From the IMG/VR virus record IMGVR_UViG_3300021963_009201, positions 1-64,000 of that record: a stretch of 64,000 bases of DNA; one strand, 5' to 3'. The position numbers were made by a program, and so were the translations under genes. The notes below the pieces were generated by a model that saw only the letters and a list, made by a program, of their open reading frames with translations, did no database searches and had not been told where the DNA came from. Below, piece after piece: positions 1 to 55,702 of this stretch. This stretch comes from a virus. Every line of letters begins with the position of its first letter. Positions within the stretch are counted from its first letter, which is position 1.

Positions 1-1890
1 CCGACAGGAGCAACCGGCGCAGCTTCTACTGTTACGGGTCCGACTGGGCCAACAGGCGCTACTGGAGCGGCTTCCACTGTTACAGGCCCTACCGGTCCAA
101 CAGGAGCGGCTGGCGAAGCCTCAACCGTGACAGGCCCAACAGGCGCAACTGGCGCAGCTTCTACAGTTACTGGACCAACTGGCCCCACTGGACCAATCGC
201 TAATATATCCGCTACCGATACGGTAGCCCAGGGTCGTCTTACGGGCGATCAATCAATCCCTGTCACTACGGACACTCTAATAAGTTTTGTTGATGACTTC
301 GACCCAAATAACTGGTGGGATGCAACCACAAAACGATTTACACCAAACATTGCGGGGTACTACAATGTCGCCCTAGAGGCATGGTGGGTGGCCGGTGGAG
401 CAACGACTAATCAATACAACCTTCAAATTCGAAAGAATGGCAACACTTTCGCTATTTTCCAGAATCAAATTACAACGTCTAATGGCCTATCTCAGGGTGG
501 GTCAAAACTTGTTTACTTGAATGGTTCCACCGATTATGTGGACTTTACGGCATATAACGGCGATTCCTCTTCGAGAAGTATTCAGTGGGGCGGGGGCGCT
601 ACTGGTCAAGGGACATGGTTCTCTGCCTCTTTAGTTACAGTCGGTACTGGACCAACGGGCGCAACTGGGGCATCAGGCCCTACTGGTCCAACGGGTGCTT
701 CAAACCTTGATGGATTAACAGATGTTGTTATAACAAGCGCGCAAAATGGTCAAATATTAGTTTACGATGGAACAAGTTGGATCAATACCGTTAGGTCTAG
801 TAATGAACCTATAGGTCATGAAGACCCAACGCAAAGTACGATGTCATTTAATGAGAGTACTAGGGAATTTTCTATATCCCCAGTATCTGCAAGTCATACA
901 GTTTGGTGTGTTGGAAAACGGTATATAAAAACAACAACAGAAACCATAACAATACCAGATACAAGTGGTCTTTATTATATTTATTATAATACATCAGGAA
1001 GCTTAGCTTATAAGACTACATTCTTTACCTGGGATCAAGATACGCCCACTGCCTACATTTACTGGAACGACTCTACAAACAAAGCTTACTTTTTTGCCGA
1101 TGAGCGTCACGGTATAACACTAGACTGGCAGACCCACGAATACCTTCATAGAACCAGGGGTGCAGTTATTGCTAGCGGCTTTGGTGCTAGCAATTATTCT
1201 ATCGTTGGTGATGGCTCATCGAATAGTCACGCGCAAATTGATATAGCTAATGGTACATTCTTCGATGAGGATCTACAGGTTGACATCGTACACTCCAATA
1301 CTCCAACAGCAAATACTTGGCAACAAGACTTGCAGGGTCCTGGTTTAATTCCTGTTTTTTATCGTTCCGGTTCTAGCTGGGTAAAAGATACAGCTACCAG
1401 CTACCCATTAAAGCAGGGTACGTCAAGAGCTCAATATAATCTTTACAGTGGCGGCACTTGGTCTGCTACCGATGTGACTCAGAACGGTAATTTTACAATT
1501 TCATGGATTGTTGCTACCAACAATTTGAATGAACCAGTCTTGGCAATCATGAACCAAAGTGAATATAACAATATCGGCCAAGCAGAAGCTGCTAAGTTTA
1601 GTGATTTAGACCTAACCGATTTGCCTATAGTTGAGTTCAGACTGCTTTATCGTGTAATTTTCCAAACTAGCTCTACCTACTCTAATACCCCAAAATCTCG
1701 ATTTGCGAACATAATAGACGAGAGGGTTGTATCAACATCGGTAACGGGCATATCTTCTACACCAGTAGCTGATCATGGGTCTCTAGTTGGTCTAGCTGAT
1801 GATGATCACACACAGTACCTGAATCAGACTAGGCATGATGTTCTTGACCACAGAAATGTAAAAATATATTTCTTTATGGAAGTGAATTAA
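1..1890 (+). CDS. Collagen-like fibre protein (5' truncated) with C1q/TNF-like domain and C-terminal globular domain
   Basis: Frame 1 is open from base 1 ([16 protein letters not shown]...), so the gene starts upstream of the window. G-P-T/G-A-T triplets, then a C1q-like segment (FDPNNWWDATTKRFTPNIAGYY...IRKNG...LNGSTDYV), a second short collagen stretch, and an HGSLVGLADDDHTQY motif near the C-terminus. Confidence 0.85.
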   Translation, partial: PTGATGAASTVTGPTGPTGATGAASTVTGPTGPTGAAGEASTVTGPTGATGAASTVTGPTGPTGPIANISATDTVAQGRLTGDQSIPVTTDTLISFVDDFDPNNWWDATTKRFTPNIAGYYNVALEAWWVAGGATTNQYNLQIRKNGNTFAIFQNQITTSNGLSQGGSKLVYLNGSTDYVDFTAYNGDSSSRSIQWGGGATGQGTWFSASLVTVGTGPTGATGASGPTGPTGASNLDGLTDVVITSAQNGQILVYDGTSWINTVRSSNEPIGHEDPTQSTMSFNESTREFSISPVSASHTVWCVGKRYIKTTTETITIPDTSGLYYIYYNTSGSLAYKTTFFTWDQDTPTAYIYWNDSTNKAYFFADERHGITLDWQTHEYLHRTRGAVIASGFGASNYSIVGDGSSNSHAQIDIANGTFFDEDLQVDIVHSNTPTANTWQQDLQGPGLIPVFYRSGSSWVKDTATSYPLKQGTSRAQYNLYSGGTWSATDVTQNGNFTISWIVATNNLNEPVLAIMNQSEYNNIGQAEAAKFSDLDLTDLPIVEFRLLYRVIFQTSSTYSNTPKSRFANIIDERVVSTSVTGISSTPVADHGSLVGLADDDHTQYLNQTRHDVLDHRNVKIYFFMEVN

Positions 1891-18047: not shown

Positions 18048-21899
<3,852 letters not shown>

Positions 21900-28179: not shown

Positions 28180-28854
28180 ATGCCAGCATCACAAACAAGT
28201 GGGACTAACCAAATTGGTCGTTTCACAGATACTTACACAACATTCTCTGGCGCAGATATAGTATGCTGCTTCGATTCCGTACCTATCGGTACGCTTTCTG
28301 GCATCACCTATTCGGTAACCAGAGAAAAGGCACCAATTTACACAATGGGATCCCCAAACCCTCGTTCATTCTCTCGTGGAAAACGCGGTATTGCAGGATC
28401 TCTTATTTTCACGGTTTTTGATCGTCCATCACTTTACAACCTTCTTCTTAAGAATGTTGATAACGACTCCATGAAATACTTTACTCGTTCATCGAACGTA
28501 CTTCCTGGTTTCGACAGTAATGGCAACATCACTCACCGAGGAATTACCCCACCAGACTATCAGACCCGAGACATTCGGTCGGCATTCCCTTACTATGCAG
28601 ACCAGATTCCTCCATTTGATGTTACCGTAACATTCGCCAACGAATACGGGCAAGCTGCCGTTCGTAGCATCTACGGTGTTGAACTTCTAAATGAAGGATC
28701 AGGTGCTTCTATGGATGACATAGTCATCGAGGAGACCATGACGTATGTCGCTCGCGACGTTGGTCCAATGTATGCGACTGGGCAGCCTCGCGATGGTGTC
28801 CTTGACTTTGCAGGTGTCGATTCCTCTATCAATACCAATATCATCGTTCCTTAA
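28180..28854 (+). CDS. Tail tube protein
   Basis: Directly after sheath; FSGADI...IG.L.GITYSV.REK.P...G......RG.RGIAGSLIF..FDR...PPFDVT..F.NE.G. Confidence 0.8.
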   Translation: MPASQTSGTNQIGRFTDTYTTFSGADIVCCFDSVPIGTLSGITYSVTREKAPIYTMGSPNPRSFSRGKRGIAGSLIFTVFDRPSLYNLLLKNVDNDSMKYFTRSSNVLPGFDSNGNITHRGITPPDYQTRDIRSAFPYYADQIPPFDVTVTFANEYGQAAVRSIYGVELLNEGSGASMDDIVIEETMTYVARDVGPMYATGQPRDGVLDFAGVDSSINTNIIVP

Positions 28855-28877
28855 TTTATATTAAGTTTCAGATTATG

Positions 28878-28912
28878 AAAAAGGGAGTACTATATAAAGT
28901 GCTCCCTTTTTT
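28878..28912. terminator. Bidirectional-type intrinsic terminator after tube gene
   Basis: AAAAA-GGGAGTAC-TATATAAA-GTGCTCCC-TTTTTT. Confidence 0.75.
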
Positions 28913-28929
28913 ATGTTTATGGAGATACT

Positions 28930-30096
28930 ATGCCAGATGAAGAGAGACCGTACACATGGTTTCCAACCTCAACTGAAGAAGCTATAGCGATCAATGAAGA
29001 ACCAACTTCATTGCCTGACTGGTATGACCCGCCGCCAAATACGCTCCCGATAAATACCCCGCCAATAAATCGGGAAAGCGAATACACGCTTCCAAAATGG
29101 TATGAAAATACTGATGTTTCTGCAATAATAAATGAGAACCAGTATAATCAGTCTTTGGCTAATCCAATTAAAGTTGGCGGTAAATTAAATAAGGTTAACG
29201 ATTACGGCGCTACGGGATTGTATACATCCTATGCAGGTGTCGATATAGTGGCAACTATGGTCATACCCGGCCAAACAGAGCCAATTGACATTGGTGAACT
29301 CCAAACTATTTCTTATTCGATCCATAGGGAAAATGTACCTGTTAGGGTCTTGGGTAGGGTTGGACCAAGAGGTTTCGTTAAGGGTCCGCGAACTATAGCT
29401 GGAAGCTTAATTTTTACTCAGTTTGATAAATATTTCTTTTATAAATTAAGTACTTTTAAAAATCATTTGGCCAATAACCTATACCCACTTTCGGATATGC
29501 TTCCGCCATTTGACGTAACTATTTCTTTTTCGAATGAAAGCGGTTCTTTTTCGAAGCTTAAAATATATGGAATTACAATAGTTGACGAAGGTTCAACTAT
29601 GTCGGTTGATGACCTTATTACAGAACAAACTTTTACTTACATGGCGCGCGGAATACAGCCTTTGGTCAGCTATTTGCCAAATGATATTAAAGAAATTATA
29701 GATAGAGACTATTTAACTGATCCTGAAAAACGTAGCGATATATTGGTTATAGGCGGGGGCAGTCCAGGTGCTCCATCTATTCAAGTTCCTGCTGATGGAG
29801 GATCTCAATATCTCATTAAGCTGGCTCAATTGAGAAGTGAAAAGAATGAATTGATTAGGTCTCAAGGGGATACCCAGTATCAGTTTAATACATTTATAGG
29901 GCTCATGGCCGAATTGGGCGGAGAATACGTAGGTGATCTAGATAACCCAATTTATCTTGATAAGAAAGCCTACTATGAATATGAGATAGCACAACTACAG
30001 AATGACTTGAATTACTATGCTTTACGTATAGATGAAAAAGATAATCAAATTTTTGAATTTATAGCAAAAATGAAAGAATTAGGCATAGAAGAATAA
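28930..30096 (+). CDS. Tail tube paralog 2 with Pro-rich N-terminal and coiled-coil C-terminal extensions
   Basis: YAGVDI...IGELQTISYSIHRE..P...G...G.RTIAGSLIF..FD...PPFDVT.SF.NE.G aligns with 28180-28854. Confidence 0.75.
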   Translation: MPDEERPYTWFPTSTEEAIAINEEPTSLPDWYDPPPNTLPINTPPINRESEYTLPKWYENTDVSAIINENQYNQSLANPIKVGGKLNKVNDYGATGLYTSYAGVDIVATMVIPGQTEPIDIGELQTISYSIHRENVPVRVLGRVGPRGFVKGPRTIAGSLIFTQFDKYFFYKLSTFKNHLANNLYPLSDMLPPFDVTISFSNESGSFSKLKIYGITIVDEGSTMSVDDLITEQTFTYMARGIQPLVSYLPNDIKEIIDRDYLTDPEKRSDILVIGGGSPGAPSIQVPADGGSQYLIKLAQLRSEKNELIRSQGDTQYQFNTFIGLMAELGGEYVGDLDNPIYLDKKAYYEYEIAQLQNDLNYYALRIDEKDNQIFEFIAKMKELGIEE

Positions 30097-30968
30097 TGGC
30101 GATTTCAAGAGACACTAGAGACATTGAGCAAAGGAATGGCGCGATACAAAATCGTATGCCAACGGAGAGTATCCGCCGTAGAACGACTAGTAACGCACTA
30201 GCGTTAAGCCGCTCAAGTGAGCTAGATATATTAAATAGTGAGATAGATCTTCAGTGGGCATCTGCTTTTGGCGGGGCATCTGACAAATTCAATACTTATT
30301 ATGATTACTATTATTCGGGCCAAGATATTCAGGTATACATCGATGGCGCTCAGTCTCAATCGACTGGTGGGGCAATACCCATTGTAAGCTTTGGTTTTAA
30401 TATCAAGCAAGAAAAGCAGCCTCTATACGGTTTTTGGAGTTATACTTTTGATGCTATAATGCGCGGTAATCGTATAGTTAATGGCACTTTTACAGTGGCT
30501 ACAACATCTTTAAACTACATAAAAGATTTGTTAACTGAAGCTGCAGTCACCAGGAAGAAGGGAACTGAAAGTCTTTATCCGATAAGAAATTTAAATAAAG
30601 ATGAAGAAAATATAGAAAAATATTGGAGCCTTAACGTAGACTCCTCTTTGGTTGGTGTTACAGTGGATAACCAGCGTAATTTATGGAGTTCGCATCCGCC
30701 TTTCAATTTTGTTATAGTATATGGTATGCAGGACATTAGTATATCTGATTATACCTCAGGAAATTTAAAGAGGCTTAAAAATCCACAAAATCTTTTGGTA
30801 GATACTAATGATAGATTAGTTTCGGAGAATATAACTCCTACACGTCATGTGATAGAGAATGTTGAATTGACAAGCATGCAGGTAGAGTATACACCAGATG
30901 GTCAGCCAGTAGGTGAAACTTATACCTTCTTAGCTAGAGATTTGTTTAGTTATCAAGAAAAGGAATAA
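30096..30968 (+). CDS. Tail tube paralog 3 (tube initiator-like)
   Basis: YSGQDIQVYID...Q.K.PLYG...G.RIV.G.FTV...PPFN....YG...ETYTFLARD. Confidence 0.65.
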   Translation: MAISRDTRDIEQRNGAIQNRMPTESIRRRTTSNALALSRSSELDILNSEIDLQWASAFGGASDKFNTYYDYYYSGQDIQVYIDGAQSQSTGGAIPIVSFGFNIKQEKQPLYGFWSYTFDAIMRGNRIVNGTFTVATTSLNYIKDLLTEAAVTRKKGTESLYPIRNLNKDEENIEKYWSLNVDSSLVGVTVDNQRNLWSSHPPFNFVIVYGMQDISISDYTSGNLKRLKNPQNLLVDTNDRLVSENITPTRHVIENVELTSMQVEYTPDGQPVGETYTFLARDLFSYQEKE

Positions 30969-38100: not shown

Positions 38101-38758
38101 GCCCGCAAGCCGTAAAAAAGAAATAGCCTTGGATGAATATACTGATATTTTGACATATGTTAAGAACATGCATTTGTCTGCTGCGGCCGAATCATCTGGG
38201 AATCAAGATTTAGCTGCGCAATTCATGAATGAAGCTAAACAAACAATGTATGGCGCAGATATATATCAAGGTAATCTTTCTCAGATAGCGCAAGCAATAC
38301 CAAAAAGGAAAAGGGAGCATTTTAAAGCAATGTTGGCTGCTCCTGTCGAAGAGCGTAAGCGAATACTTGATACTTCCGGAAGATTGGAACGCAGAATTTA
38401 TCAGGCCGCATGGGGAATGCCCGTAGAGAAGAGGCCAGACTTGGAAGAGTATTTCTCCGAAAGGGAACTACCTGAAGCTGGCTGGGAAGGATACAACCCT
38501 TCAACCTCCATGGATCAAATTAAAGTAAAGATTGGTCAAAGCATGGGTTTGGATTTATCAGAAATGGGTTACTATCCACAACAGATTAAGGAAGCTAATT
38601 TAGTTAATGCTTCCTACCCATCCTTCCGTTCCAACACCACAGGGACTGCTCAGAGGTTGCGTGAATTGATGAGAGCGCAAAATATTCAAGGGGATGTTAT
38701 TCCCGTGTTGACACCTTACGCCGGAGATCGGATTGAGTTACAGGCAGGGTTGAGGTAA
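32120..38758 (+). CDS. Tape-measure-like giant protein (2212 aa)
   Basis: Position right after the chaperones; Gly/Ala/Lys-rich and largely helical; hydrophobic Gly-rich segments (e.g. FLAATTMGFVGSLFG...AIGAFIGGSAGFAAG). Confidence 0.6.
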   Translation: MIRDQGPIYNLGYGVNSRSLPRWEGSEEEQRGANPNSGVISKMLNKNPAMKFVAASAATMLVGAVATSVVRGSGVKLFSKLEDINKPWASQMISDMKSVREQLDAFQGVTRSYGQGDPLPGQLYGRKILDNGSTAIDTGEVNKTSSYFITRDERLKALRTGRTPPAAWSMADEIQSRLVASARRMPYELPAFYLAHKTVVNPLMGGEQDPKKKVNWFNPLDVVSDFFVESAKMATTMMLPFEAGTAASKQGWRRFMTYGDDLAQPTASQQTFRTGVLSMKALLGQVGADAVDVTNKVLNFSSRSTGALSAGLNAAAGTEKGLVQYFHSIRHGTTDWAQLSAVQKAKNLVTNASLMDAAPGPFKGFTTGLRAADQEYKKILASQEAYKQFLSLGPRGFDSVAGNPVTAARKNFFAKKLETLGVLQTSSNPYGSMKEALSEHLSKTSHGMQSTVREWGLFKHGRPALTPSANTGIKNGTFYKNAIDGEYTRLLKSRLMRGPGGLDQKSADAFAASFRVASPKSGAVDDALSLTQRIKPHGKGELGGNTEDEFFDNLLKHLRNRLPEGQVGPSARQLKDAIAKTDATFMDQGVRKILDAKVGAQFKAIEDQILPNIAKGQLKRLPTPYDSFNHSYLSPDEIAFMQKNVARLTGLNLVAQNGQPISHDLVISHLRSAKLDPENMSVLKGILIDKKVISKPWQRDGRNIFGLKRLTLDKSVEKGIFRNGQYDESDARDIISRIAAGDPLAGAGQYGLRGAWESQTGQVLDLSIIKRGITRAVNTFASDYHIPLLKFNPLQMANWVGSQEMRDKAMFQFIPGMSNQPFLRGAKETDDFYLWMKSGHRGSKGKVFSMSTGNGQPLINELQGTYKPNSATRGVVAKHARYAIKDEGFSPNGTGPNSTMGRIKKFFDVSEDAQDSIFGYFSRARNRRFDLNNRQTFARLLSDGQIPAKGGGSLTLQQAMQDSVAFEGAAKGFIAEMGAANLSDDVVNALKNARTAAGEEFAFTKALSYDVRGGGAQFLPDEVVSLTSLKSSGQLEEFGQLISSGDKALMGSLTQEQRRVLQSAKSAYIDRYLKNAYGPGYWDKVVGKGTSSRLDAYKRDLAKYLTVRQNTLNNQEFGEQLPELLTQIQRLKGTGAFNASQATEARAALMSIQYDLTAASTYARSNTTYQNLRGAIDRFVADAPVLGTQRVLQEISSGKLGTSGGLLGRVQPILRSRLGASSYDYDGIVFNPFASDTLLTPTFSSTFLPSQGGNPFRALKSVSGVSTYSDPQSFSGASVIQSHLISRLNKPFSALGIGVDPTANYKGALDLYARGLVGKRVLPIVAGGTALLTADRTIGGYANGKDQYGDRVYSPFFLGKAADAYVGMGSIFAGITPGGETSEDYKKRMETGEVPIRAGRWWALGNTPFKGGRIQYYRPNWYRRLKSGYTYTDQTYGTPMERALYGYDFSPLRAIDPYRFERKHYYDRPYPETGEYFTGPWGPLTSALNMTVGKVLKPTKMMHEQEVATGLAKYAPVGDAGAYIPPTTQFALNSVGSGSGFSYGGTTMGSTTVGVGGARITGFSSTVKTNAPTTGSTGGSVGLTRSFNARLQQAGQYSLSTGSVQAAQMVANINQQYAQAAYSPAYGTVKQEGLMDPRIIAGAPPISRSSLKFQSSQLAYEAQELAGIYGFAFGGIRRELGLGTQDYSPDRPVLASAGKAYGSTRAFWDLNIGGVGDFPLPIEGNMSNLEFSEIARRFIPKERKDVQYVNPIKNDMGIMYPWLPGSDYFINFKEGDPYTHVPEGEMRLPGKGYERFHRLNSDATGKYGLVDQFKVLGDVAPWSQEYRELDSVLDKMNLGSRQREIIQTTREQVEAKKVTNEFTPYKHTYNNDPTDSLLKNVVGRVKEKIEHSDTYFNTKFLQKRTAVEDWERDNVYGATFPEWQNPIDDFLQPMMNKSTQRGPFLAATTMGFVGSLFGKGPKAKAIGAFIGGSAGFAAGSYGKAYEAITGRQFMPASRKKEIALDEYTDILTYVKNMHLSAAAESSGNQDLAAQFMNEAKQTMYGADIYQGNLSQIAQAIPKRKREHFKAMLAAPVEERKRILDTSGRLERRIYQAAWGMPVEKRPDLEEYFSERELPEAGWEGYNPSTSMDQIKVKIGQSMGLDLSEMGYYPQQIKEANLVNASYPSFRSNTTGTAQRLRELMRAQNIQGDVIPVLTPYAGDRIELQAGLR

Positions 38759-41700
38759 TGGTAGATTATAGCGATTTTGACCCAAGGATTTTACGTCAGA
38801 CACTATCTAAGATTAGTCAAAAGTATCCAACTTTTCAGTTCGATTTTCAAAACAATGTACCAACTATTCGTGTTGGTTCTGAAACTTATAATACCCCAGC
38901 GGAAGCGCTTGAGTATATTAAAAAAATTAATTTAACCCAATATGACGTATTTGACTCAACAATACCAAGCTATCTTAAGTCGGGGCAAGGTGCAAATAAT
39001 TTCTTAATGCTAGAGGAGTTATCTGAAACACTTGGCGTGCGCATAGAGCGCTTAGGCATGAAGTCGGCAAGCGTTAAGCAGATTGAAGCTATTAATGAAG
39101 TCTTTTCTACCGGAATGGATAGAGAAGGGCTTTTCTACGCAAAGAACGATAATGTTACAGGTTTAATATTTCATCAAAATGGTAAAAAATTAAAATTAAA
39201 TGAAATCCTAGATTTACTAGAAAACAAAGGTATCCATTTTGATGTTAGCCAAAAAACTTTTAAGCGTTTACGATTCTTGGGTAATGATTATAAGTTTAGT
39301 GCTTCTGGCCTAGATTTAAACGCTTACTTTTTTGAAGCCGCAAAGACGCAACGTGGCATGGATTTAATGAACAAGGCTGGTTATACTTTTTCTGATGGCG
39401 GATACAAGGTAGCTTCAAGTAGGCGTATAGGAGATATGAGCAACCTTGTCGGGAACGTAAGTGCCGAGTATTCTGGTCTGCCATCTGAAATGTCTATCAA
39501 AACGCAAAAAAATGTCTTAAAAGCATATAAGGAGTTAAACCTTGGCGGTGCCTTAAACACTATTCAAGATATATCGTCCTTAAGCGATTCAGACGTAACT
39601 AGGTATATGCTTCAATTAAGTAGTGATGAGATATTAGAGTCAGGTAAGTACATTGATTCGCTAAATATGGTGAGGCGCGCATTCGACGGCGCAGTTTACG
39701 CTAGGTCAAGCTTGGCTGGCAAGGTTGCTGAGCAGGCTATGCAAAGAGCCGCAAAAATGACTCAAGATATGAGTGACGACATCAAATCGGGCCGTCTGAT
39801 AGAAGGTAGTGTTGAGCACAAGTCGGCACTAAGAAAAATTGCTGCAACAAAAAGAAGTGCCGCAGAACTTGACCCAATAGTGAAGCATGGTGGTGTCTTC
39901 AATGTGAGGATAATGGGCTTCAATGACGTAAGTGCGGAAGATGAATTTGTAAATGCGATTTTTGGAGAAAATGTATCAAAAAAAGGCTTCTCGGGCCAGG
40001 TTAAAGGTAATGTTTACTTTGAGCCAGATAAACAGTTTGAAGAAGCGCTTATGTCACAGATGAAGGGTTACAACCAAGATCTTGTTGAGTATAGGGGTAA
40101 GCTTTACTCGATGGACGAAATGATAGCTACCCATAAAAACCTTGGTTTAGGGACAGTTATTACGGACGCCGGTATGTCAGGTCGGAATAGAAAACTTGTA
40201 CTAGATGAAATAGAACGCAAAGGTGGGACGGTTCTAAGTCCACGCTCAATAGATGTTGTCACCTCTAAGGAGGCTAGAACAGTAGAGGTTGGTTTCAGGC
40301 AGGGTAGCGCAATGGCCAACAGGGGCGCAGCTCTATCGATGGAGGTGCAAGCTTCTGGCACTAAAGTTTTTTCTGAAGCCCAGTCATTTTTTGCCGATTT
40401 TGAACTTTATGATATGGACGCAATACGTAGAACTAACATGCAATACGTCCAAAAGCAAATTGATTATGTTAAGACTGATAAGATATTAGACGACTATGCA
40501 AGATTTAGGACTACAGGGGAAAGCTCCGGTATACTTCGGCAGCTAGTAGATCAAGCTGACGGCATCCCTGGCGAAGCTAGTACTGTTAGGGCACAACAGT
40601 TATTGGACATGCTTGATCAGGGTATAGCGCCGTCGAAAAATCCGCTTTTTGCACAAATGTATACAAGTGCGGTTAATGAGTTTAATCCTCGTAAAGATAT
40701 GTTCCATCTTCTAATGCCAAACGTTTACCAGGCGCAATTCACTAATGAGCTTGGAAGGTCGTCTCAGGTAACGCGTGGTAGTATTTCTTATAAGAAAAAT
40801 CTTGGTTTCATACTTAACGATTTAGATTATGATAAATATTACAATGCATTTGGCGGTCCTGACTTTGACGATTTGCTCAGATCTCATCTAAAATGGGATC
40901 GTGGATCAGATTCTTTAATTGCAATAATGAAAAGAACGCCAAGTGCCTTAGGTGAAATAGGTGTTTTTAGCGTAGATCAAAATGATCAATTAATGGATGA
41001 GGTACTCAAGAATGCTGCTGAAGTAGACGATGCGATAAAGGGTCACATCGATAGCGTAAAATTGCTTGATGCTAAAATAAATATTAAAAGCTCTTTACAA
41101 GCAAGCGCTAATTCGGCGACTGGTGTAACTGGCGCAAATGCAATGCAAAACTTAAAAAGTTTATCAGCAGTTTCTGACATTGTTGCTAGCCCAGAAGTTG
41201 ACGCGCAAAGACTCGCTTCAATTATGGATGAAATAGATACTTTGGGCAGCCCAACAGATGATTCACTTCGCTATATTAACGATGCAATTGATTCCTTGGG
41301 AATAGGTGGTCAAACAGTTGAGGACCTAGAAGCAGAAAAAGCATTGTTACGTGGTGGTACAAGAAAAGATATTTTAAGAGATTATTTCGAGCGAACACAT
41401 AGCGCTATGGAATCTTCTGAAATAAATAAGATAAGGAATAGGAGTTTAGCTTTATCTGATGAAGCTTTGCAGGGAATAGCTAAATATGGTTCTGTTGATG
41501 AGCTGCTGGCAAATAGAATGTCTAGAATGAGCAACCAATTGATCACCGGTATTGGTGATGATTTTGGTTCCTTAACAGATGAGTCGATTGAGGCTCTTAC
41601 TAAAAGTTTTGGTGTTCTTGGCGAATATTCGAATCTCCGTATGGTCTTAGACTCCATGAAGCGAGTAAGTGACGAATTAGGTAACGCGCCAAATTTCGGT

Positions 41701-43083
41701 GATGACGCCATAAAAATATTAAGACAAGAAGATGTAATTGATGCTTTAACTAAAGAAGGCGGGGCACTCGCGGAGGAGATTCGCGGCATTAATGACAATA
41801 TTGTAAGCTTTATATCGGATTACTTACTGCAAGGCGGGAAGATAGATAAGTTTGTTATAGACAATGAATTTGGGGAAAAGACAAGACTTAGTAAAGAGCA
41901 TGTAAATAGGATTAATCAAAAACTTATACAAAGTGGCAGAACTTTAGACGAGTTTACTGTGGAGGGTCCGCTCACGCAACGCGCACAAGCCGCATCAAGG
42001 ATTATGGAAGATATTGGAGATCAATATCGGATGATGAGGAGAGACATAGGTTTAGTTGATGGTTTAAAAAATCAACTTTTTGATTTAGATATAGAACGCG
42101 AAGCTGACGAGTTGATGACAATCGCTCGTGAAACTTACAAGGTTGATGACATTAGTTTCAGGTCAGCTTCGGCCTTAAATGACGCTATGGACTTGTTCGG
42201 TGAAATCCCAGATTTTAACGAAGTTTCAGATAGGGTCGGAAGAGCTCAAACTGAGTTTTTTAGGACCTTTACAGAAAGGTACGGGACAAGGTTAGATGAT
42301 GAAACTTTAGAGATTTCTGAACGCGGCCAAAAAGTGCTTGGTTCAATGATAAAGAGGCATAGCCTAACACCTTTAGGTGAGGGTTCTGGTAGTCTTTTTG
42401 GCGGCAATCTTAGTGGCGTTTTTAATAGCACACTACAATGGTATGACAATCTTGGTAGGGGAAATGTAGCAGGGGTTTCGGGCCAGCTAACGGTAGACAA
42501 TAAACTTGGTGCGATGCTAGAGGAAATTGATTCATACGATCGCCCGCAAGCTGTTTCAGAAGCAATTGATGCTGCAACCGGAGATATAGGTTCGGGACAG
42601 AGATCATTGATCAGATCCCGCGCTGCACGCAGGGCTTCAGAAGGTGTTTCGGATTTTGCTTCAAACACTAAAACAAAACTTCCTAAGATTTTAAGCCAGG
42701 AAGGATTAAACCTATTTAAGAATCAAACTTTCAAGAGGGGTGCGATAGCACTTGGTGGGTTGATGACATTTTCTGCTATATATAGGAAAATGAAAGACAG
42801 GACCCCCGAAGACATGCAGGGCCCACCAATGCTCCCCGGTGGCTCTTTTTATGACAATAATGCTGGCATGTACAGTCAGCAAATAATTAATAGTCCACAA
42901 AACAACCAAGGTGGCGGTACTACATATAAGATAAGGGCTTCAGGTAGTTTTGACGTAGATGCTTTATCTGGCGATATGGAAAACTTAACGGGTGCTCAAG
43001 TAAGGTCTAATAAATACGAGTCTCGCGGCTATCAGAATAAAAGCTCTAATATCGAACGTGTTATAAACGATTCTTTTAGGTGA
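38758..43083 (+). CDS. 1441-aa virion-module protein; putative two-barrel RNA polymerase-like
   Basis: Coupled by TAATG to the tape-measure-like gene; motifs FDG (aa 309-311), FNVR...GQVKG (aa 381-417), FGGPDFDD (aa 698-705), KRTP (aa 725-728). The CDS is certain; the function is inferred. Confidence 0.45.
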   Translation: MVDYSDFDPRILRQTLSKISQKYPTFQFDFQNNVPTIRVGSETYNTPAEALEYIKKINLTQYDVFDSTIPSYLKSGQGANNFLMLEELSETLGVRIERLGMKSASVKQIEAINEVFSTGMDREGLFYAKNDNVTGLIFHQNGKKLKLNEILDLLENKGIHFDVSQKTFKRLRFLGNDYKFSASGLDLNAYFFEAAKTQRGMDLMNKAGYTFSDGGYKVASSRRIGDMSNLVGNVSAEYSGLPSEMSIKTQKNVLKAYKELNLGGALNTIQDISSLSDSDVTRYMLQLSSDEILESGKYIDSLNMVRRAFDGAVYARSSLAGKVAEQAMQRAAKMTQDMSDDIKSGRLIEGSVEHKSALRKIAATKRSAAELDPIVKHGGVFNVRIMGFNDVSAEDEFVNAIFGENVSKKGFSGQVKGNVYFEPDKQFEEALMSQMKGYNQDLVEYRGKLYSMDEMIATHKNLGLGTVITDAGMSGRNRKLVLDEIERKGGTVLSPRSIDVVTSKEARTVEVGFRQGSAMANRGAALSMEVQASGTKVFSEAQSFFADFELYDMDAIRRTNMQYVQKQIDYVKTDKILDDYARFRTTGESSGILRQLVDQADGIPGEASTVRAQQLLDMLDQGIAPSKNPLFAQMYTSAVNEFNPRKDMFHLLMPNVYQAQFTNELGRSSQVTRGSISYKKNLGFILNDLDYDKYYNAFGGPDFDDLLRSHLKWDRGSDSLIAIMKRTPSALGEIGVFSVDQNDQLMDEVLKNAAEVDDAIKGHIDSVKLLDAKINIKSSLQASANSATGVTGANAMQNLKSLSAVSDIVASPEVDAQRLASIMDEIDTLGSPTDDSLRYINDAIDSLGIGGQTVEDLEAEKALLRGGTRKDILRDYFERTHSAMESSEINKIRNRSLALSDEALQGIAKYGSVDELLANRMSRMSNQLITGIGDDFGSLTDESIEALTKSFGVLGEYSNLRMVLDSMKRVSDELGNAPNFGDDAIKILRQEDVIDALTKEGGALAEEIRGINDNIVSFISDYLLQGGKIDKFVIDNEFGEKTRLSKEHVNRINQKLIQSGRTLDEFTVEGPLTQRAQAASRIMEDIGDQYRMMRRDIGLVDGLKNQLFDLDIEREADELMTIARETYKVDDISFRSASALNDAMDLFGEIPDFNEVSDRVGRAQTEFFRTFTERYGTRLDDETLEISERGQKVLGSMIKRHSLTPLGEGSGSLFGGNLSGVFNSTLQWYDNLGRGNVAGVSGQLTVDNKLGAMLEEIDSYDRPQAVSEAIDAATGDIGSGQRSLIRSRAARRASEGVSDFASNTKTKLPKILSQEGLNLFKNQTFKRGAIALGGLMTFSAIYRKMKDRTPEDMQGPPMLPGGSFYDNNAGMYSQQIINSPQNNQGGGTTYKIRASGSFDVDALSGDMENLTGAQVRSNKYESRGYQNKSSNIERVINDSFR

Positions 43084-52500: not shown

Positions 52501-52817
52501 CTATTGGTGCGGGTGTGGATGGAAGATTTGGTTCTAAGGATAAGTACGGCCGAACGCTTGCTGTCGTATTTCATAATGGTGATTACGACAAATTGGCATC
52601 AAGCGCCGAAAAAGAAAGGCAGAGAAGAGATTCTCTACTAAGAAACGCTTCTTCGTGGCCTTTGATTCCCTGGGATTCATTTACCGCAGATGGTAGGACT
52701 TACACTGTTAATTGGGAAATAGTTGTTTCTGGATTAGCTTATACAGATATGGGCGGAGTTAAGGCTGGGGACCCTGACGCTAGGTATAGTTCGGGAAACT
52801 TTACTGGGGGTAATTGA
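43527..52817 (+). CDS. Giant baseplate hub (gp27/gpD-like) with internal RlpA-like barrel and C-terminal thermonuclease domain, 3096 aa
   Basis: TTG start; hub motifs VHMRMGYG...VFNG.IT.V....VEVIAQS and IIGRADIRPHD.V.L.D....YG.FEVE.VTH.F....GFVT.ITP; SNase motifs near the C-terminus. Confidence 0.75.
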   Translation: MSEYSAEDVIDVLIIAFEFPPSDVYGPMERYLLSIGKVWIQSEDPIGASIKLTETQALNAVKHFLKNREVVAGGTSDGSDYDSSLPYDEEVVKKALSEANRTSLSGQSSDSIKRIIQNLDDLFGFGVILREKESIEGIVSFLQSPEGIGNFSKLSYDARVALNNLLSLRDNGDFHSKRLYNLALSVLPQLNRLLDSYVDLQKKEEQYVKDNGVDPTTLFANSFMSVFSEKPLQMALFYKENTQRRISEAFAQQFQRPNNDPQPVQPWEMRIGGSKFFVPPIDVKVSQFFKTGSLTGGAIRQASSPKFNSGHSETAIQTTIYFPSLESIWGIITSEEKPEVFLNFDDINKTSDKDVDYFLSSLRGLIAQFKYAPFLPVRNQYLNQAWGITGVTLNSMTISTVENYPFCVAVTLNMMKFNHKVYLPMVEDFNQAVHWGRFRQYMGRAAMAMQNSYNLGFLTESLFGDIWDKIPFINRDKPKPDQDTFDTSDVSFSRPTKEGWAKDPTRIKFYYPSKTPMEIFAPDDSMFRQEREDETVGSSDYERDKSAWELLLGKLGIDVDVYPESVYDNVKNYSQRFTTYQNEWTYLGQYLKFNSLVVLNMTQDKLIKYLNERISTLEKEGTIKNDADKNNYTSAIVQRWYDFMFGGFKDTVFYRKLLENTQYRNGSFTINEWDVPMEEMAFDAKSVFVQGISVSLSNNFAKHQVQLQDEPTYQHIGGGDNRVDISMIVVGEDNLIRIRRMFDKIGGLARLEHAHGVLGFLGVKNELTALAGMKYLMPLTYEVDTIPGYPRVYNVRLSFIDFDIFQQKREKLSSDLQVGLKDLFGKRNPFLRVKQVWSRFNAYPDFPLTIRDEKDDKVIGTIDPDFYFRAFTTFDDDLTYWGSLPKGEESPIASMNSDGTFQINPKKDDVTAKLAQASGEVKTEQYTVNKKNTVSTYPLELYFNMLTTGDGQDTSAIVKLANAGELIVGTQQQNEDPKFPTTGKPVKMTEDTAVATQTEPSIAGLTPGAQIQNPYANATNDPSTQYELIMNDAKYRDINGRMIRAFPTYMLWLIDEGGRFGGVKLFDNFYGLQSVVDFSINRSEDVLGDTLVLRLSNLYSKLSTQYKGFVKRQDGTENIVLDDDNGNTIESVADIPEYLIQTQENINSGMDDTYIVELDSIRLKPGVRVHMRMGYGANPNSLETVFNGVITQVQAGDIVEVIAQSDAIELSQYINTTNKKGHSGDIDGAIGTGFWLSEPRDLMVRLLSMGSSRFKEGFAHATRGQIFSESRFGIRHFGTILYEALTPNEKERHDKRYQAVTSRLQAVAGSDSVSKVLGASAGTIYDTTASDNEDSKNSLIGGSFSGFLGQGAVRTSTDESGKVSMPLLGLMQSMWTNFFTKRDFEIYKRNIYPGNGTGVAQYLGGDLLDSGPVLLEAAGSQAATDTFFNKDAKSIFSQFKSGEPGKDSRDQVIQNTILNLSLSGERIEDQVSPQNNAAPSNSDPNAPANQGASGRDPSSVTAATLLLGSVGEAVLMKRGALKNNPLLQALGLIQGGEADSDLNGFDEVSFRAQTYMKTVWDMFKLCAALLPNYIVAVRPFEDRSTVFYGKPHWLYTSGVIPLSTGVPKDDDKVKPEGPDAELERIMREATNLANPLADLENQMKFVKDISSSNPFTSFTGTQAPGTTNTPDSSSEVMTLPLESGGAKIPIRSGKVVMGKHLEGYNYNAPESNLSDAISRMTISEKAEIVTEYATAQKDELAKNSSRDPLTGEFSQEYIRRMNALDEILKNAIDEEEEKIDDFIKDPVNSGIRGRFLSDASSVHIELPQLPDVHKYANFRAGSLFVGFENGTPQITPEGEQWYIRMRWPYINWQDYLKRQWESPESGTGDPSKYWGKKVAVSLPDSGKVVVCYAIDGGPMDPAFRAEVSPDVYYALDLAGYPQKDCYFGFVDDNVRLGPVGGSLSTETGRRLDVSSIPVPTRAIVDGRSYETIVDPDQAFERLTSDTNAETLFGEQYYFINSFLYGWLAGGGNNNPRASGYYGNFDDANKENDAQFADKYISLLDNGIKGSIRADDNAIGAFDIVGEIARRIYDVDYNERRLELLKDSDIASNYLRDTGLTFDKLVEKANANYEAFNNARKFYGDYKGDTETTAEEIWDIFRKQWHIRTDKEYLEVKEAAIEFINQIGLPINDPNNALGFDENWYDGSTSGQGFDSSAESEAVDKVIFSTNMTKIVNNFKMLMWRLPYARAWLVITTGRTPDTGELLAASVGASVVTLNPVPAVAALATDALDDNPFDFKNSDITKLWRWYLGLNADGYKKNDTAVSALINAAALDNENSFNGFSSQINLSPDAKTGASIFANEALVGRFIEALKHYKRVGLKGNGAQQAIERIGQVWNQTIGAFFTLVSSALSGVVATFRLSLMQMGYGMGMLGAMQQQANILNRALNDSIYYSLGEPGSAIWLADNPFTREYGEPVIEIREPFQRFHYINSFQDIIDNGIQEKLDNIPTVVTASSDGKYPVTVYFDKGTSPEKQFEVGIETGLFWDNARGSGFFGFLHPLLHPFETMRGLAKSASGSSDEILSRRVGLSYLKESLKDIYGGEVVIIGRADIRPHDLVYLADTYERMYGIFEVEAVTHHFTSDMGFVTAITPNAVVTVNDPARWVYQSWIWGLFGVQNTRNHVRHLLSVTADRSSRVYNDVLAFVDSNGEVDMSGFAESIEDTIRGSVQFTGGNSGLVKDIASHAAAGYAVPSGSSYSIAPDSWEQSAQNIGSLFSSPGATFASWIPGVNKLLDVAWEGWTWVRDNLLDQHGCYIQYLSKDGQPMDAGLSFNQGVAVGHHHSINLLPGILGVEVDTTENGHRRITINDLMGSLGWSELEISSIQRQVSWWNNYWNARVLDYAGKGPDPVTLTRPNAYLAKVIAMSTDDDDGNGIVDGDTFSCQKLDADGNLTGSTFKIRLAGIDTAELDFKQDIQRNDSSQKAYIARQFLEKRLITDQVANGLEPIVAVRESIGAGVDGRFGSKDKYGRTLAVVFHNGDYDKLASSAEKERQRRDSLLRNASSWPLIPWDSFTADGRTYTVNWEIVVSGLAYTDMGGVKAGDPDARYSSGNFTGGN

Positions 52818-53728
52818 TGGCCCACTTTGATTTTTCTTTAAATGATTTCACTAATGAGAAAAATATCTCTAATGCCGTAATTAATAAGTCAAAAAATTAC
52901 ACACCAAATGGACAGGCTAAAGCGATAAAAACATCTTTTTCTCAACTTCCCTTAGACAAGCAAAGGCCTTTAACAACTACTAACGTTTCAGATATGCTCC
53001 AGGGCACAACGGTCTATAAGCCAATGGGTTTGATATACAATTCCTTTAATGATGTTTTGTCTAGGGATATACAGCTGGCAAGGAATGTGAAAGTTGGCGA
53101 TAGGTTGCTGTCTATGGATAAAGCCCATACAGGGCTGTTGCCTTACGATTCGAATAAGAGGGACGCTTCAATAGATATAGCTTCTAGCGTAAATGCCTTG
53201 ACAACCAGTGCGGGGTCAACTGGAACACCAGCAGCCGCAGACAATGGAACCACAACTTCTGCGGGAGGCCAAGGCTCTGGCCCCGGAACCGAGATATTTG
53301 TCCCGCCCGCTGGTAAATCGTGGCCTAAGGGCACACTTTCTATCGACGACGTTGCTAAACTAGTCATTGAAGTTGGAATTTCTGAAGACGCCCAAGCTGT
53401 ATTGGTAGCCATTTCTCATCGAGAGTCTAGCTTTAGGACTGGAGCCTATAATCCTGTTGGACTAGATAATTCTTGGGGTCTATGGCAGATTAATACTATT
53501 GACGGGGCAAGCCCGCAGTATCGACGTTATGACCTAACCGATCCTTATACAAATGCAAGAGTTATGGCTATCATGTCCGGTAGTGGGGCCAATCTGCATC
53601 CCTGGTATACCCAGCACGATGGCAGCAATGAACCTGGCTACAGTAGCGCATATAGTGTTCAAGACTTTTTGCCAGAAGCTATTGCCGCAGTTCAGAGGGT
53701 TAAGGCGCAGGGTTATAGGGCTGGGTAG
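52817..53728 (+). CDS. Lysozyme-like lytic transglycosylase (SLT/Rpf-like) with shared N-terminal domain
   Basis: TGATG overlap gives ATG 52817; AISHRESS (catalytic Glu), SWGLWQIN, L.DP..NA..M, HPW. Confidence 0.85.
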   Translation: MAHFDFSLNDFTNEKNISNAVINKSKNYTPNGQAKAIKTSFSQLPLDKQRPLTTTNVSDMLQGTTVYKPMGLIYNSFNDVLSRDIQLARNVKVGDRLLSMDKAHTGLLPYDSNKRDASIDIASSVNALTTSAGSTGTPAAADNGTTTSAGGQGSGPGTEIFVPPAGKSWPKGTLSIDDVAKLVIEVGISEDAQAVLVAISHRESSFRTGAYNPVGLDNSWGLWQINTIDGASPQYRRYDLTDPYTNARVMAIMSGSGANLHPWYTQHDGSNEPGYSSAYSVQDFLPEAIAAVQRVKAQGYRAG

Positions 53729-53759
53729 TCCAAATTGATACACAACCTGTTAATAACTA

Positions 53760-53768
53760 TTACTATAT
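53760..53768 (+). promoter_or_regulatory. TTACTATAT promoter-like motif
   Basis: Recurrent motif in the 122-nt intergenic gap before the amidase; a second TTACTAA lies at 53827. Confidence 0.45.
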
Positions 53769-53850
53769 CCAGTAGGGATTAGATGAATAAAGTAAAGAAC
53801 GTCAATATAAAAATTATTACATTTTCTTACTAAGATTGGCATAGAGACTG

Positions 53851-54855
53851 ATGGCCCACTTTGATTTTTCTTTAAATGATTTTACTAATGGGAAAAATAT
53901 TTCTAATGCTATTATTGGAGGAACTAAGAGTTACACGCCAACCGGAGAGGCAAAATGGTTGAGGACTACGTATTCCATGGTAGACGCAAAAGCTCAACAG
54001 TCTTTAACAACCGCGTCTGTTTCGGATATACTTCAGGGAAATTTGCTACTTAAACCTGTTGCCCTTAATTATACGCAGTTTAATGAAGTTACTTCTAGTA
54101 TATCGAAAGTCGCTAATACTACTAAAGTTCAAGATAAGGTTGGAGCGCTTGGTTATAGGAAATACCTTGCTGGATTCGACACGGTCGGCGCCGTAAATAG
54201 TCTTATTAATCTTAATATTAATACTACAACATCGCCTAATAGTATTACGCCAACATCTCCAAGCCCAACTGGTGCATCAAGTATCCGCCCTATTGCGGGC
54301 GGTTACTACCTAATTAACCACCCACCTGCAAGTCCGCAATTCCACGAAAGTAGGAATAACGGCCTTAGTGGCGGTGTGGTTTTGCACACCACCGAAGGTG
54401 GCGGAGGTTATCAGTCGGCGGAAGCAACGGCAGCCTTTATATCGCGCAGATCAGACCCTGGATCGTACCATTGCATAGTGGATTCCGAACCAAATACGGC
54501 TGTCTATATGATGCCAGACAATTATACAGCCTTTGGTGTAGCTACTCCCGGATTTAATAGTAGGTGCTGGAATATCGCAATAGCGGCAAATTCTGCAGAT
54601 TTGAACCCAAGTAGCCCAGAAACATTAACCGAAATCGACAATATGGGTAGAGAAATTGTTGCGTTCTGGGCTAGGAATAGTATAGACCCAACACAGGGTG
54701 TCAGGTTTGTCGGGAATGGAGTTAAAGATGGGCCAGGTCTTGCACATCACGGGGATGTTCAGCCGGGAGACAGGTCAGACGCATGGGCTCGCCGAGAAGA
54801 TAGGGAGCTTTTTGATGCTTTATTATTGCAGGCTATAGCTCGCCATGCTATTTAG
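53851..54855 (+). CDS. N-acetylmuramoyl-L-alanine amidase (Amidase_2-like) with shared N-terminal domain
   Basis: VVLHTTEG (Zn-binding His), SYHCIVD, LAHHGDV...DRSD. Confidence 0.82.
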   Translation: MAHFDFSLNDFTNGKNISNAIIGGTKSYTPTGEAKWLRTTYSMVDAKAQQSLTTASVSDILQGNLLLKPVALNYTQFNEVTSSISKVANTTKVQDKVGALGYRKYLAGFDTVGAVNSLINLNINTTTSPNSITPTSPSPTGASSIRPIAGGYYLINHPPASPQFHESRNNGLSGGVVLHTTEGGGGYQSAEATAAFISRRSDPGSYHCIVDSEPNTAVYMMPDNYTAFGVATPGFNSRCWNIAIAANSADLNPSSPETLTEIDNMGREIVAFWARNSIDPTQGVRFVGNGVKDGPGLAHHGDVQPGDRSDAWARREDRELFDALLLQAIARHAI

Positions 54856-54868
54856 GTAGGTTGATATA

Positions 54869-55702
54869 ATGGCACACTTTAATTTTAGTTTAAAAGATTT
54901 TGCCAACGGTAAGAATATTAGTAATTCTATTATCGATAATCAAAAAAACTATACTCCAAGCGGTGAAGCTAAATGGTTGAGTACTACCTACTCAAAAACC
55001 CCGGTCAAAGCTAACACTTCAATGACTACAGCAAATATCTCCGATATATTACAGGGGCAACTCTTGTATAAGGATCCTGGATTAGTTGCTACTCAGTTTA
55101 ATGAAGTTTTATCTTCAGATATGGCAAAATTGCTCAGCGCCAGTGTGGACGGTAAAAATACTTACATTACCAAACCTATGGCACAGTTAGTTGGATACGA
55201 TATACCGGCACAGTCCGATATTGGTTCTATTATCGTGAACAATATAGGTACGGCCTCAGCAGGGACTAATGCATCGAGATCTCCTGCTACTGGCGCCCCA
55301 AATACTGGAGGTGGTCAGACGGGGGTACCGACCCCAATTCCAGAAAGTGGTACTGCGGTAGAATTCGCCCTTTCTCGTATAGGTTGCAGGTATGTTTGGG
55401 CGGCAGAAGGTCCCGATACTTTTGACTGCTCGGGTTTAGTAACTTGGTCTTATAGGAAGGTCGGGATAAATCTGCCCCATTACAGCGGTGCCCAATACAA
55501 TATAACCCAAAGGATAACTGAAGAGCAGCTTCAGTCGGGAGACCTGATTTTCTGGGGGGGGAATGGAAGTGAGCATTGTTCCATCTATATTGGGAACAAT
55601 GAGATGGTTCACGCTTTTGATGGCGTGCAAAAAACGCTTTTTATATTTTCTTATGGATACTGGTGGAAAAAGCCGTCTGGATATGGTCGAGTTGTAAGAT
55701 AG
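54869..55702 (+). CDS. NlpC/P60 peptidoglycan endopeptidase with shared N-terminal domain
   Basis: YVW..EGP..FDCSGL...LPHYS..Q...GDLIFW....HCSIYIG...MVHA. Confidence 0.9.
   Translation: MAHFNFSLKDFANGKNISNSIIDNQKNYTPSGEAKWLSTTYSKTPVKANTSMTTANISDILQGQLLYKDPGLVATQFNEVLSSDMAKLLSASVDGKNTYITKPMAQLVGYDIPAQSDIGSIIVNNIGTASAGTNASRSPATGAPNTGGGQTGVPTPIPESGTAVEFALSRIGCRYVWAAEGPDTFDCSGLVTWSYRKVGINLPHYSGAQYNITQRITEEQLQSGDLIFWGGNGSEHCSIYIGNNEMVHAFDGVQKTLFIFSYGYWWKKPSGYGRVVR

Follow-up and report, generated by a model that had tools for sequence, protein, structure and literature searches.

A putative single-chain two-barrel RNA polymerase with an altered metal loop in the tail module of a sheath-bearing phage

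We examined a long gene in the tail module of a phage, within a window of 64,000 nucleotides (positions 1 to 64,000 of the IMG/VR virus record IMGVR_UViG_3300021963_009201), and found that its product of 1441 amino acids (aa), P0001, is very probably homologous to two-barrel polymerases, with its active site intact. Two-barrel RNA polymerases (RNAPs) are defined by a D-x-D-x-D magnesium loop; the loop of P0001, and of all 71 family members compared, reads D-x-D-D. Our favoured explanation, which we consider probable with appreciable room for others, is that the protein is a DNA-dependent RNAP of a new clade, made as a single chain with a GG-x-D-x-D-D loop, tied to the tail, ejected into the host and used for early transcription before a paralogue encoded in the same genome takes over. 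This clade of phage single-chain two-barrel RNAPs, with its altered metal loop and its position in the tail module, is previously undescribed, and a literature search turned up neither the target family nor any two-barrel polymerase with D-x-D-D.

Motifs and domain layout of P0001

The reading frame that the original prediction had proposed is open over its full length, and every motif quoted for it was recovered at its residue and nucleotide (Table 1). The stop of the upstream 2212-aa gene and the start of the target overlap (TAATG), with a GAGG ahead of the start. Judged from the sequence, P0001 would consist of an N-terminal two-barrel RNA polymerase core (approximately aa 130–1040) and, C-terminally, a helical part, a hydrophobic helix and an invariant motif. 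The two double-psi beta-barrels (DPBB) are named here DPBB-B, the barrel with the basic residues, and DPBB-A, the catalytic barrel. Residues ~300–425 would form the former, including R384 and K416, the latter a candidate lysine for binding nucleoside triphosphates or RNA; ~220 residues would link the barrels, and residues ~646–745 would form the catalytic barrel with D702, D704 and D705. The helical region after this barrel may hold a bridge helix, and the stretch from LGEYSN to QEDVID is a possible bridge-helix/trigger-loop region.

The final ~400 residues, which comprise the helical part, the hydrophobic helix and the GPP-LPGGS-Y motif, would not belong to the polymerase. The C-terminal half is helical, and the hydrophobic helix that had been predicted there is present, though of moderate hydrophobicity and under the Kyte-Doolittle cut-off of 1.6 over 19 aa. 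Directly after it comes the motif DRTPEDMQGPP[LM]LPGGS.Y, which occurs once in this genome and is a candidate docking, processing or membrane-insertion signal.

Table 1. Features of the P0001 gene, its neighbours and the second polymerase gene. Nucleotide positions are those of the window unless marked as genome positions.
Feature	Residues	Nucleotides	Strand	Remarks
Whole target gene (P0001)	1441 aa	38758..43083	+	Open reading frame (ORF); 34+ representatives, 51 IMG/VR loci
K169-R170, N-terminal domain	169–170	39262..39267	+	R170 invariant; hhalign match to the 876-aa paralogue begins here
RAFDGAVYARSSLA	307–320			D310 at 39685
D310-G311 ([DE]-G)	310–311	39685..39690	+	First DPBB-B strand; G311 invariant; aligned to the paralogue's invariant DGMF
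GGVFNVR	378–384 (VFNVR 380–384)	39889..39909	+	DPBB-B strand; R384 near-invariant; aligned to the paralogue's invariant NVR
QVKGN	414–418	39997..40011	+	DPBB-B strand; K416 at 40003; within SGQVKGNVYF (aa 412–421); aligned to paralogue GFIKGN
Pre-loop element	648–654	40699..40719	+	Family consensus P-R-x-x-x-P; H650 in target, P654 near-invariant
YNAFGGPDFDDLL	695–707			DFDD at 40861–40872
FGGPDFDD	698–705	40849..40872	+	Candidate Mg-binding loop of DPBB-A (D702, D704, D705); 71/71 conserved
RTPSALGE	726–733	40933..40956	+	Post-loop R-x-P...GE element; R726, P728, E733 invariant; RTP (726–728) at 40933–40941
LGEYSN to QEDVID	954–959 to 990–995	41617..41742	+	N959, E991 near-invariant; D995 70/71
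Moderately hydrophobic helix	1326–1345	42733..42792	+	Hydrophobic in all relatives
DRTPEDMQGPPMLPGGSFY	1347–1365	42796..42852	+	Most conserved stretch of the family; P1360, G1361, G1362, Y1365 71/71
Upstream giant	2212 aa	32120..38758	+	Stop overlaps target start; 0305phi8-36 gp145 homologue (blastp 1.8e-54, five collinear segments)
Protein between polymerase and hub genes	145 aa	43088..43525	+	Kept in relatives (105–168 aa)
Downstream giant	3096 aa	43527..52817	+	Homologue of 0305phi8-36 gp147 baseplate hub (1.4e-23, five collinear segments)
Second RNAP candidate	876 aa	genome 157657-160287	minus	93.6 kb past the window, outside the structural module

Conservation across the family

A word-index search returned just three relatives, and an exhaustive HMMER search recovered 34 representatives of 1150–1550 aa, the best-matching stretch being nearly always residues ~520–780 and at its narrowest 670–760, which is the DFDD/RTP region. 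The alignment of 36 representatives had a mean column identity of 18%. Its invariant columns included R170, G311, K416, G699, D702, D704, D705, R726, P728, E733 and D995, and R384, G417 and G700 were near-invariant. An IMG/VR locus search queried with a 7-sequence alignment added 51 further loci, typically of 1550–1850 aa, with the loop LGGFDLDDK, RQP 22–27 residues downstream and the C-terminus GPPLLPGGSAYE.

We then compared 71 non-identical members by profile alignment. G699, D702, D704, D705, R726, P728 and E733 were each present in 71/71, and K416 and R170 were near-invariant (R170 60/60 where aligned). The metal loop was D-x-D-D in all 71 members and in the family of the paralogue; the literal D-x-D-x-D spacing was found in neither. 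The basic residues of the second barrel are also conserved, K416 aligning to K207 and R384 to R198, both of which are invariant in the paralogue. It is this conservation across relatives that lifts the motifs above chance, and since, in the comparison of homologues that the original prediction had proposed as a check, the loop, R726, P728 and E733 are unchanged in the 71 relatives, the two-barrel interpretation and the DxDD loop put forward in the original prediction are both supported.

Ten residues ahead of the conserved DFDD loop the target also has a DLDYD (aa 688–692; window 40819-40833), which relatives do not keep, D690 alone excepted; it is therefore a decoy for motif-based searches. 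Additionally, in several IMG/VR relatives (L013, L024, L025/L026, L029, L030, L037, L050 and L058) two or three ORFs in overlapping frames take the place of a single polymerase gene, and the positions of the breaks differ. Two of these loci from different samples (L029:6048-10402 and L030:6048-10402) have an identical three-way split (628 + 421 + 437 aa). The split ORFs may be genuine split genes, arise from programmed frameshifts or reflect assembly errors that the records share.

Searches of Pfam, PHROGs and PDB sequences with the target protein and the family profile returned nothing relevant. The curated profiles PF05183 (RNA-dependent RNA polymerase, RdRP) and PF00623 (RNA_pol_Rpb1_2) matched neither the target nor any of the 36 members. 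At the genome level, searches with PF00940 and PF05183 were uninformative, as their controls were not recovered, and the PF00623 beta-prime domain was not detectable in this genome by a search whose positive controls worked. Finally, megablast and tblastn against 50,697 phage records gave no match to the target or to a typical IMG/VR member, and no cultured phage carrying the family was found among those records.

A second polymerase in the same genome

The same genome encodes an 876-aa paralogue of P0001. A plain blastp comparison of the pair gave no significant match (E 1.6), and the relationship is visible only with profiles: hhalign aligned target residues 157–728 to paralogue residues 92–452 with a probability of 98.7% and an E-value of 4.3e-16 over 348 columns. 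The motifs pair along this alignment (target and paralogue, respectively) as DG and DGMF, FNVR and NVR, GQ.KG and GFIKG, P-x-x-x-x-P and HPRFPLP, FGG.D.DD and FGGHDGDD, and R.P and WRMP. Past the catalytic barrel the match is weak (E 0.02), with LG.Y.N and DV[IV]D collinear. The paralogue, whose relatives measure 858–889 aa, is thus homologous over ~350 columns and has the motif order, the GG-x-D-x-D-D loop and the post-loop R-x-P of the target; in its family the last element reads WRMP or, in other phages, CRSPN.LGEY. It differs from the target in having neither the ~200 aa inserted behind the catalytic barrel nor any of the C-terminal module with the hydrophobic helix and the GPP-LPGGS-Y motif.

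The two genes occur together. All five family-carrying records that are at least 90% complete encode an 858–889-aa homologue of the second polymerase (5/5, and 6/6 including this genome), and the family-carrying records without one are fragments of 48–69% completeness.

A crude scan for over-represented intergenic 10-mers gave no clear promoter motif, the top word being a tRNA T-loop-like element. The sequence GGTATATAAA was found in three intergenic gaps (starting at genome positions 103214, 160288 and 163782, outside the window), one of these being the gap immediately upstream of the gene for the 876-aa polymerase, and is too rare to be called a promoter.

Predicted structure and barrel topology

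Residues 296–790, folded with the family alignment (AF2), gave a model with a predicted local distance difference test (pLDDT) of 81.9 and a predicted template modelling score (pTM) of 0.74, in which two beta-rich domains lie exactly at the motif clusters. The basic-residue barrel, the connector and the catalytic barrel follow one another in this order, and the model can be superposed on a solved member of the two-barrel group. The best Foldseek rows in the PDB were RDR2 and QDE-1, and only two-barrel RdRPs aligned over long stretches. The aligned ranges of QDE-1 and RDR2 end 8–14 residues past their DxDGD loops (which we take to be residues 1007–1011 and 830–834, respectively), and that of the model 8–12 residues past DFDD. 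According to these ranges, the catalytic-barrel loop with its three invariant carboxylates matches the position of the QDE-1/RDR2 DxDGD loop. In BFVD, the significant matches were uncharacterised phage proteins of ~850–1140 aa (E 5e-11 to 2e-5), with weak rows annotated as RNA-dependent RNA polymerase; phi14:2 gp66, YonO and cellular beta/beta-prime were absent among the structural matches listed. The evidence from the fold is of a separate kind from the profile match to the paralogue, and the two agree.

The original prediction had further held that the barrel is permuted or rewired, the R-x-P strand following the loop instead of preceding it. This idea is unsupported, since all alignments are collinear and the post-loop R-x-P, being shared with the paralogue, is an additional feature of the clade. 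The canonical R-x-P place is occupied by the conserved pre-loop element (648–654), which aligns with PRFPLP of the paralogue and is the probable counterpart of the R-x-P strand of DPBB-A. The unusual feature is the loop itself, which in both families is a residue shorter than its canonical counterpart.

Genomic neighbourhood

The window spans a late module encoded on one strand: portal, two sheath-like genes, a collagen-like fibre and sheath, followed by three tube-like paralogues, two small paralogues, the giants and three lysins. The structural block runs on one strand from 127 to ~105,000, and the paralogue lies on the opposite strand at 157.7–160.3 kb. Both giants that flank the target have homologues in the Bacillus jumbo myophage 0305phi8-36 (Table 1), where gp146 (annotated as a "hypothetical tape measure protein") stands between gp145 and gp147. 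Being flanked by gp145 and gp147 homologues, the target sits in the putative tape-measure slot. The label of hub given earlier to the downstream gene agrees with this homology, while that of tape measure for the 2212-aa protein is doubtful: its homologue is the virion protein gp145 and not gp146. The record EF583821 marks both gp145 and gp146 as virion proteins by mass spectrometry.

The target shares the position of gp146 without sequence similarity between gp146 and the target family. The family profile retrieved none of gp145, gp146 and gp147 by hmmsearch, these three proteins have no polymerase motifs, and the target showed no similarity to any tape measure in Pfam, in PHROGs or in gp146. 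Longer fused forms of the target (2523–5000 aa) were searched for and none was found, which is weak evidence. For the C-terminal 400 residues, ESM Atlas scores were all below 0.9. Relatives at ~20% identity keep the same gene order: a giant, a family member, a protein of ~105–168 aa and a ~3000-aa giant.

We also noted several features of the neighbouring genes. The 2212-aa protein has one N-terminal hydrophobic segment (aa 52–70). The 3096-aa hub homologue matches phrog_20474, labelled endolysin (E 3e-123), carries a hydrophobic segment at aa 2381–2399 and, near its C-terminus (aa 2912–3021), matches the endonuclease PHROG phrog_452 (E 2e-4) beside a DDDD run. Three consecutive paralogous genes after the sheath (window 28180-30968) all match phrog_9206, labelled "major head protein"; their position suggests that they are tail-tube paralogues and that the PHROG label is probably misleading. 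The 1283-aa collagen-repeat tail-fibre protein (window 18048-21899) is encoded in a G+C island of 0.59, compared with ~0.40–0.45 elsewhere in the window, and three consecutive genes at window 52814-55702 contain SLT lysozyme, Amidase_2 and NlpC/P60 domains.

Proposed role and alternative explanations

Under the favoured explanation, the protein would be synthesised late, alongside the tail proteins, and would be incorporated into the tail or the tail lumen by way of its C-terminal module. That this non-polymerase C-terminus ties the enzyme to the tail is suggested by the location of the gene in the putative tape-measure slot of 0305phi8-36. The protein would then be expelled into the cell ahead of or together with the DNA and would transcribe the first phage genes, among them that of the 876-aa paralogue, which would subsequently take over.

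Taken alone, the target sequence shows its motifs no more often than chance would give: with Asp at 8% of its residues, D-x-D-D is expected ~0.7 times and present once, and the protein also has two R-x-P and a literal DLDYD. In the structural comparison called for by the original prediction, the beta-rich domains did fall at the motifs and RDR2 and QDE-1 did rank top, but no PDB E-value was significant (none ≤ 0.001 for either model, all > 0.1), and the structural margin over background is modest. These motif counts and E-values would suit chance motifs in a helical protein without a polymerase fold, an explanation that is nevertheless extremely improbable in view of the profile-profile match (E 4.3e-16) to a family with the same motif order, the two beta-rich domains exactly at the motifs and the long structural alignments coming from two-barrel RdRPs alone. 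It is somewhat less far-fetched, but still quite improbable, that P0001 is a structural protein of the tail lumen, similar to a tape measure, which keeps an ancestral polymerase domain as a non-catalytic scaffold. The tape-measure slot, the helical C-terminal half and one weak ESM Atlas neighbour (0.85), labelled tail tape measure, are in line with such a protein; yet a dead domain would not keep three Asp, R726, P728, E733 and K416 across 71 sequences at ~18–20% identity, and the paralogue family keeps the same residues.

Two further alternatives accept an active enzyme, and both seem unlikely. The polymerase may be unpackaged, made late and active in the infected cell, working for instance on late transcripts, primers for replication or other RNAs; its position in the tail operon would then reflect gene order only. 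The fold and motif evidence is silent on location. What speaks for a virion location is that the gene, overlapped stop to start with its neighbour, lies between homologues of a virion protein and of the hub, in the slot of a 0305phi8-36 virion protein, and that this position in the tail module is kept in distant relatives. Moreover, its ~400 non-polymerase C-terminal residues carry a hydrophobic helix and an invariant motif, and a separate 876-aa polymerase already exists outside the structural module. Slightly less likely still, the enzyme may be injected and active without being a promoter-dependent transcriptase, acting instead on RNA templates like its structural neighbours QDE-1 and RDR2, as a primase-like enzyme or in producing short RNAs or nucleotides to counter host defence. 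RNA-dependent RNA polymerases do give the best structural matches, and QDE-1 takes both DNA and RNA templates (PMC9508822). Against a non-transcriptase role, both enzymes of Thermus phage P23-45 have been shown to be DNA-dependent, the phage has a DNA genome, and a transcription cascade would suit the strict pairing with a second, paralogous enzyme. The characterised phage members YonO and phi14:2 gp66 are also reportedly DNA-dependent.

Comparison with known systems

The eukaryotic RNA-interference (RNAi) polymerases QDE-1 (2J7N, 7Y7P-T, 5FSW) and RDR2 (7ROZ, 7RQS, 7EU1, 7W82, 7W84), at ~10–14% identity to the target, have a DxDGD loop and are cellular enzymes that act on RNA or single-stranded DNA. 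Like the putative polymerase studied here, phi14:2 gp66 (6VR4, crAss-like) and SPbeta YonO (PMC5467207) are phage single-chain two-barrel RNAPs. Both are described with DxDxD loops, in contrast to D-x-D-D in the target, and neither showed sequence similarity to it in any search. The phiKZ-type jumbo phages (PMC7598289), which are large myoviruses, combine a packaged early polymerase with a second, later one, the same logic as proposed here; their RNAPs are multisubunit and split from beta/beta-prime, a domain of which (beta-prime) was not detectable in this genome. A gene within the late block, with a separate polymerase or that of the host for the later gene classes, is the pattern of the virion RNAPs of N4, phiKZ, phi14:2 (gp66) and P23-45 (gp96), and it is the pattern found here. 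The gene for phi14:2 gp66 reportedly stands among those of giant virion proteins, and its product is reportedly ejected into the host.

The invariant D-x-D-D in two paralogous families is a natural test of which loop changes are compatible with catalysis, and the target offers a single-chain polymerase of ~1000 residues for biochemistry. A function is also proposed for an unannotated giant gene in dozens of IMG/VR genomes, with the prediction that these phages do not depend on the RNA polymerase of the host when infection begins. If confirmed, the strategy of tying a polymerase to an inner tail protein, known from one thermophilic siphovirus, would extend to a large, apparently common group of contractile-tailed phages without a cultured member.

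That siphovirus, Thermus phage P23-45, is the nearest parallel: a virion RNAP forms the N-terminus of its tape measure gp96, and the pre-early genes that this RNAP transcribes include the one for the paralogue gp64 (Chaban et al. 2024, PMC10770324). The pair gp96/gp64 resembles the one described here in that both consist of two paralogous single-chain two-barrel RNAPs, one of them at the tail/tape-measure position in the late module. Non-virion gp64 is encoded among the early genes, and the second polymerase here lies outside the structural module; gp96, like the target, has an N-terminal polymerase and then a long non-polymerase part with a hydrophobic segment. The differences are that P23-45 is a siphovirus with a fusion of 5,002 aa and a canonical DFDGD, whereas the target has 1441 aa and D-x-D-D and belongs to a sheath-bearing phage of ~190 kb; packaging and activity are proven for the former, while for the latter we infer both. 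No relationship was detected between the target family and gp96 (residues 1–1200) or gp64 by hhalign (E 0.031 on an unrelated stretch, and E 0.55, respectively), so that the arrangement would have an independent origin here. Tentatively, then, and with less confidence than in the favoured explanation itself, we suggest that widespread uncultured aquatic phages of ~190–215 kb with contractile tails may carry a D-x-D-D RNAP in the tape-measure position, which would travel down the tail, start a cascade independent of host RNAP and hand over to a non-virion paralogue; they would represent a second independent origin of the union of tail tape and polymerase, otherwise known only from P23-45, and the first D-x-D-D two-barrel clade.

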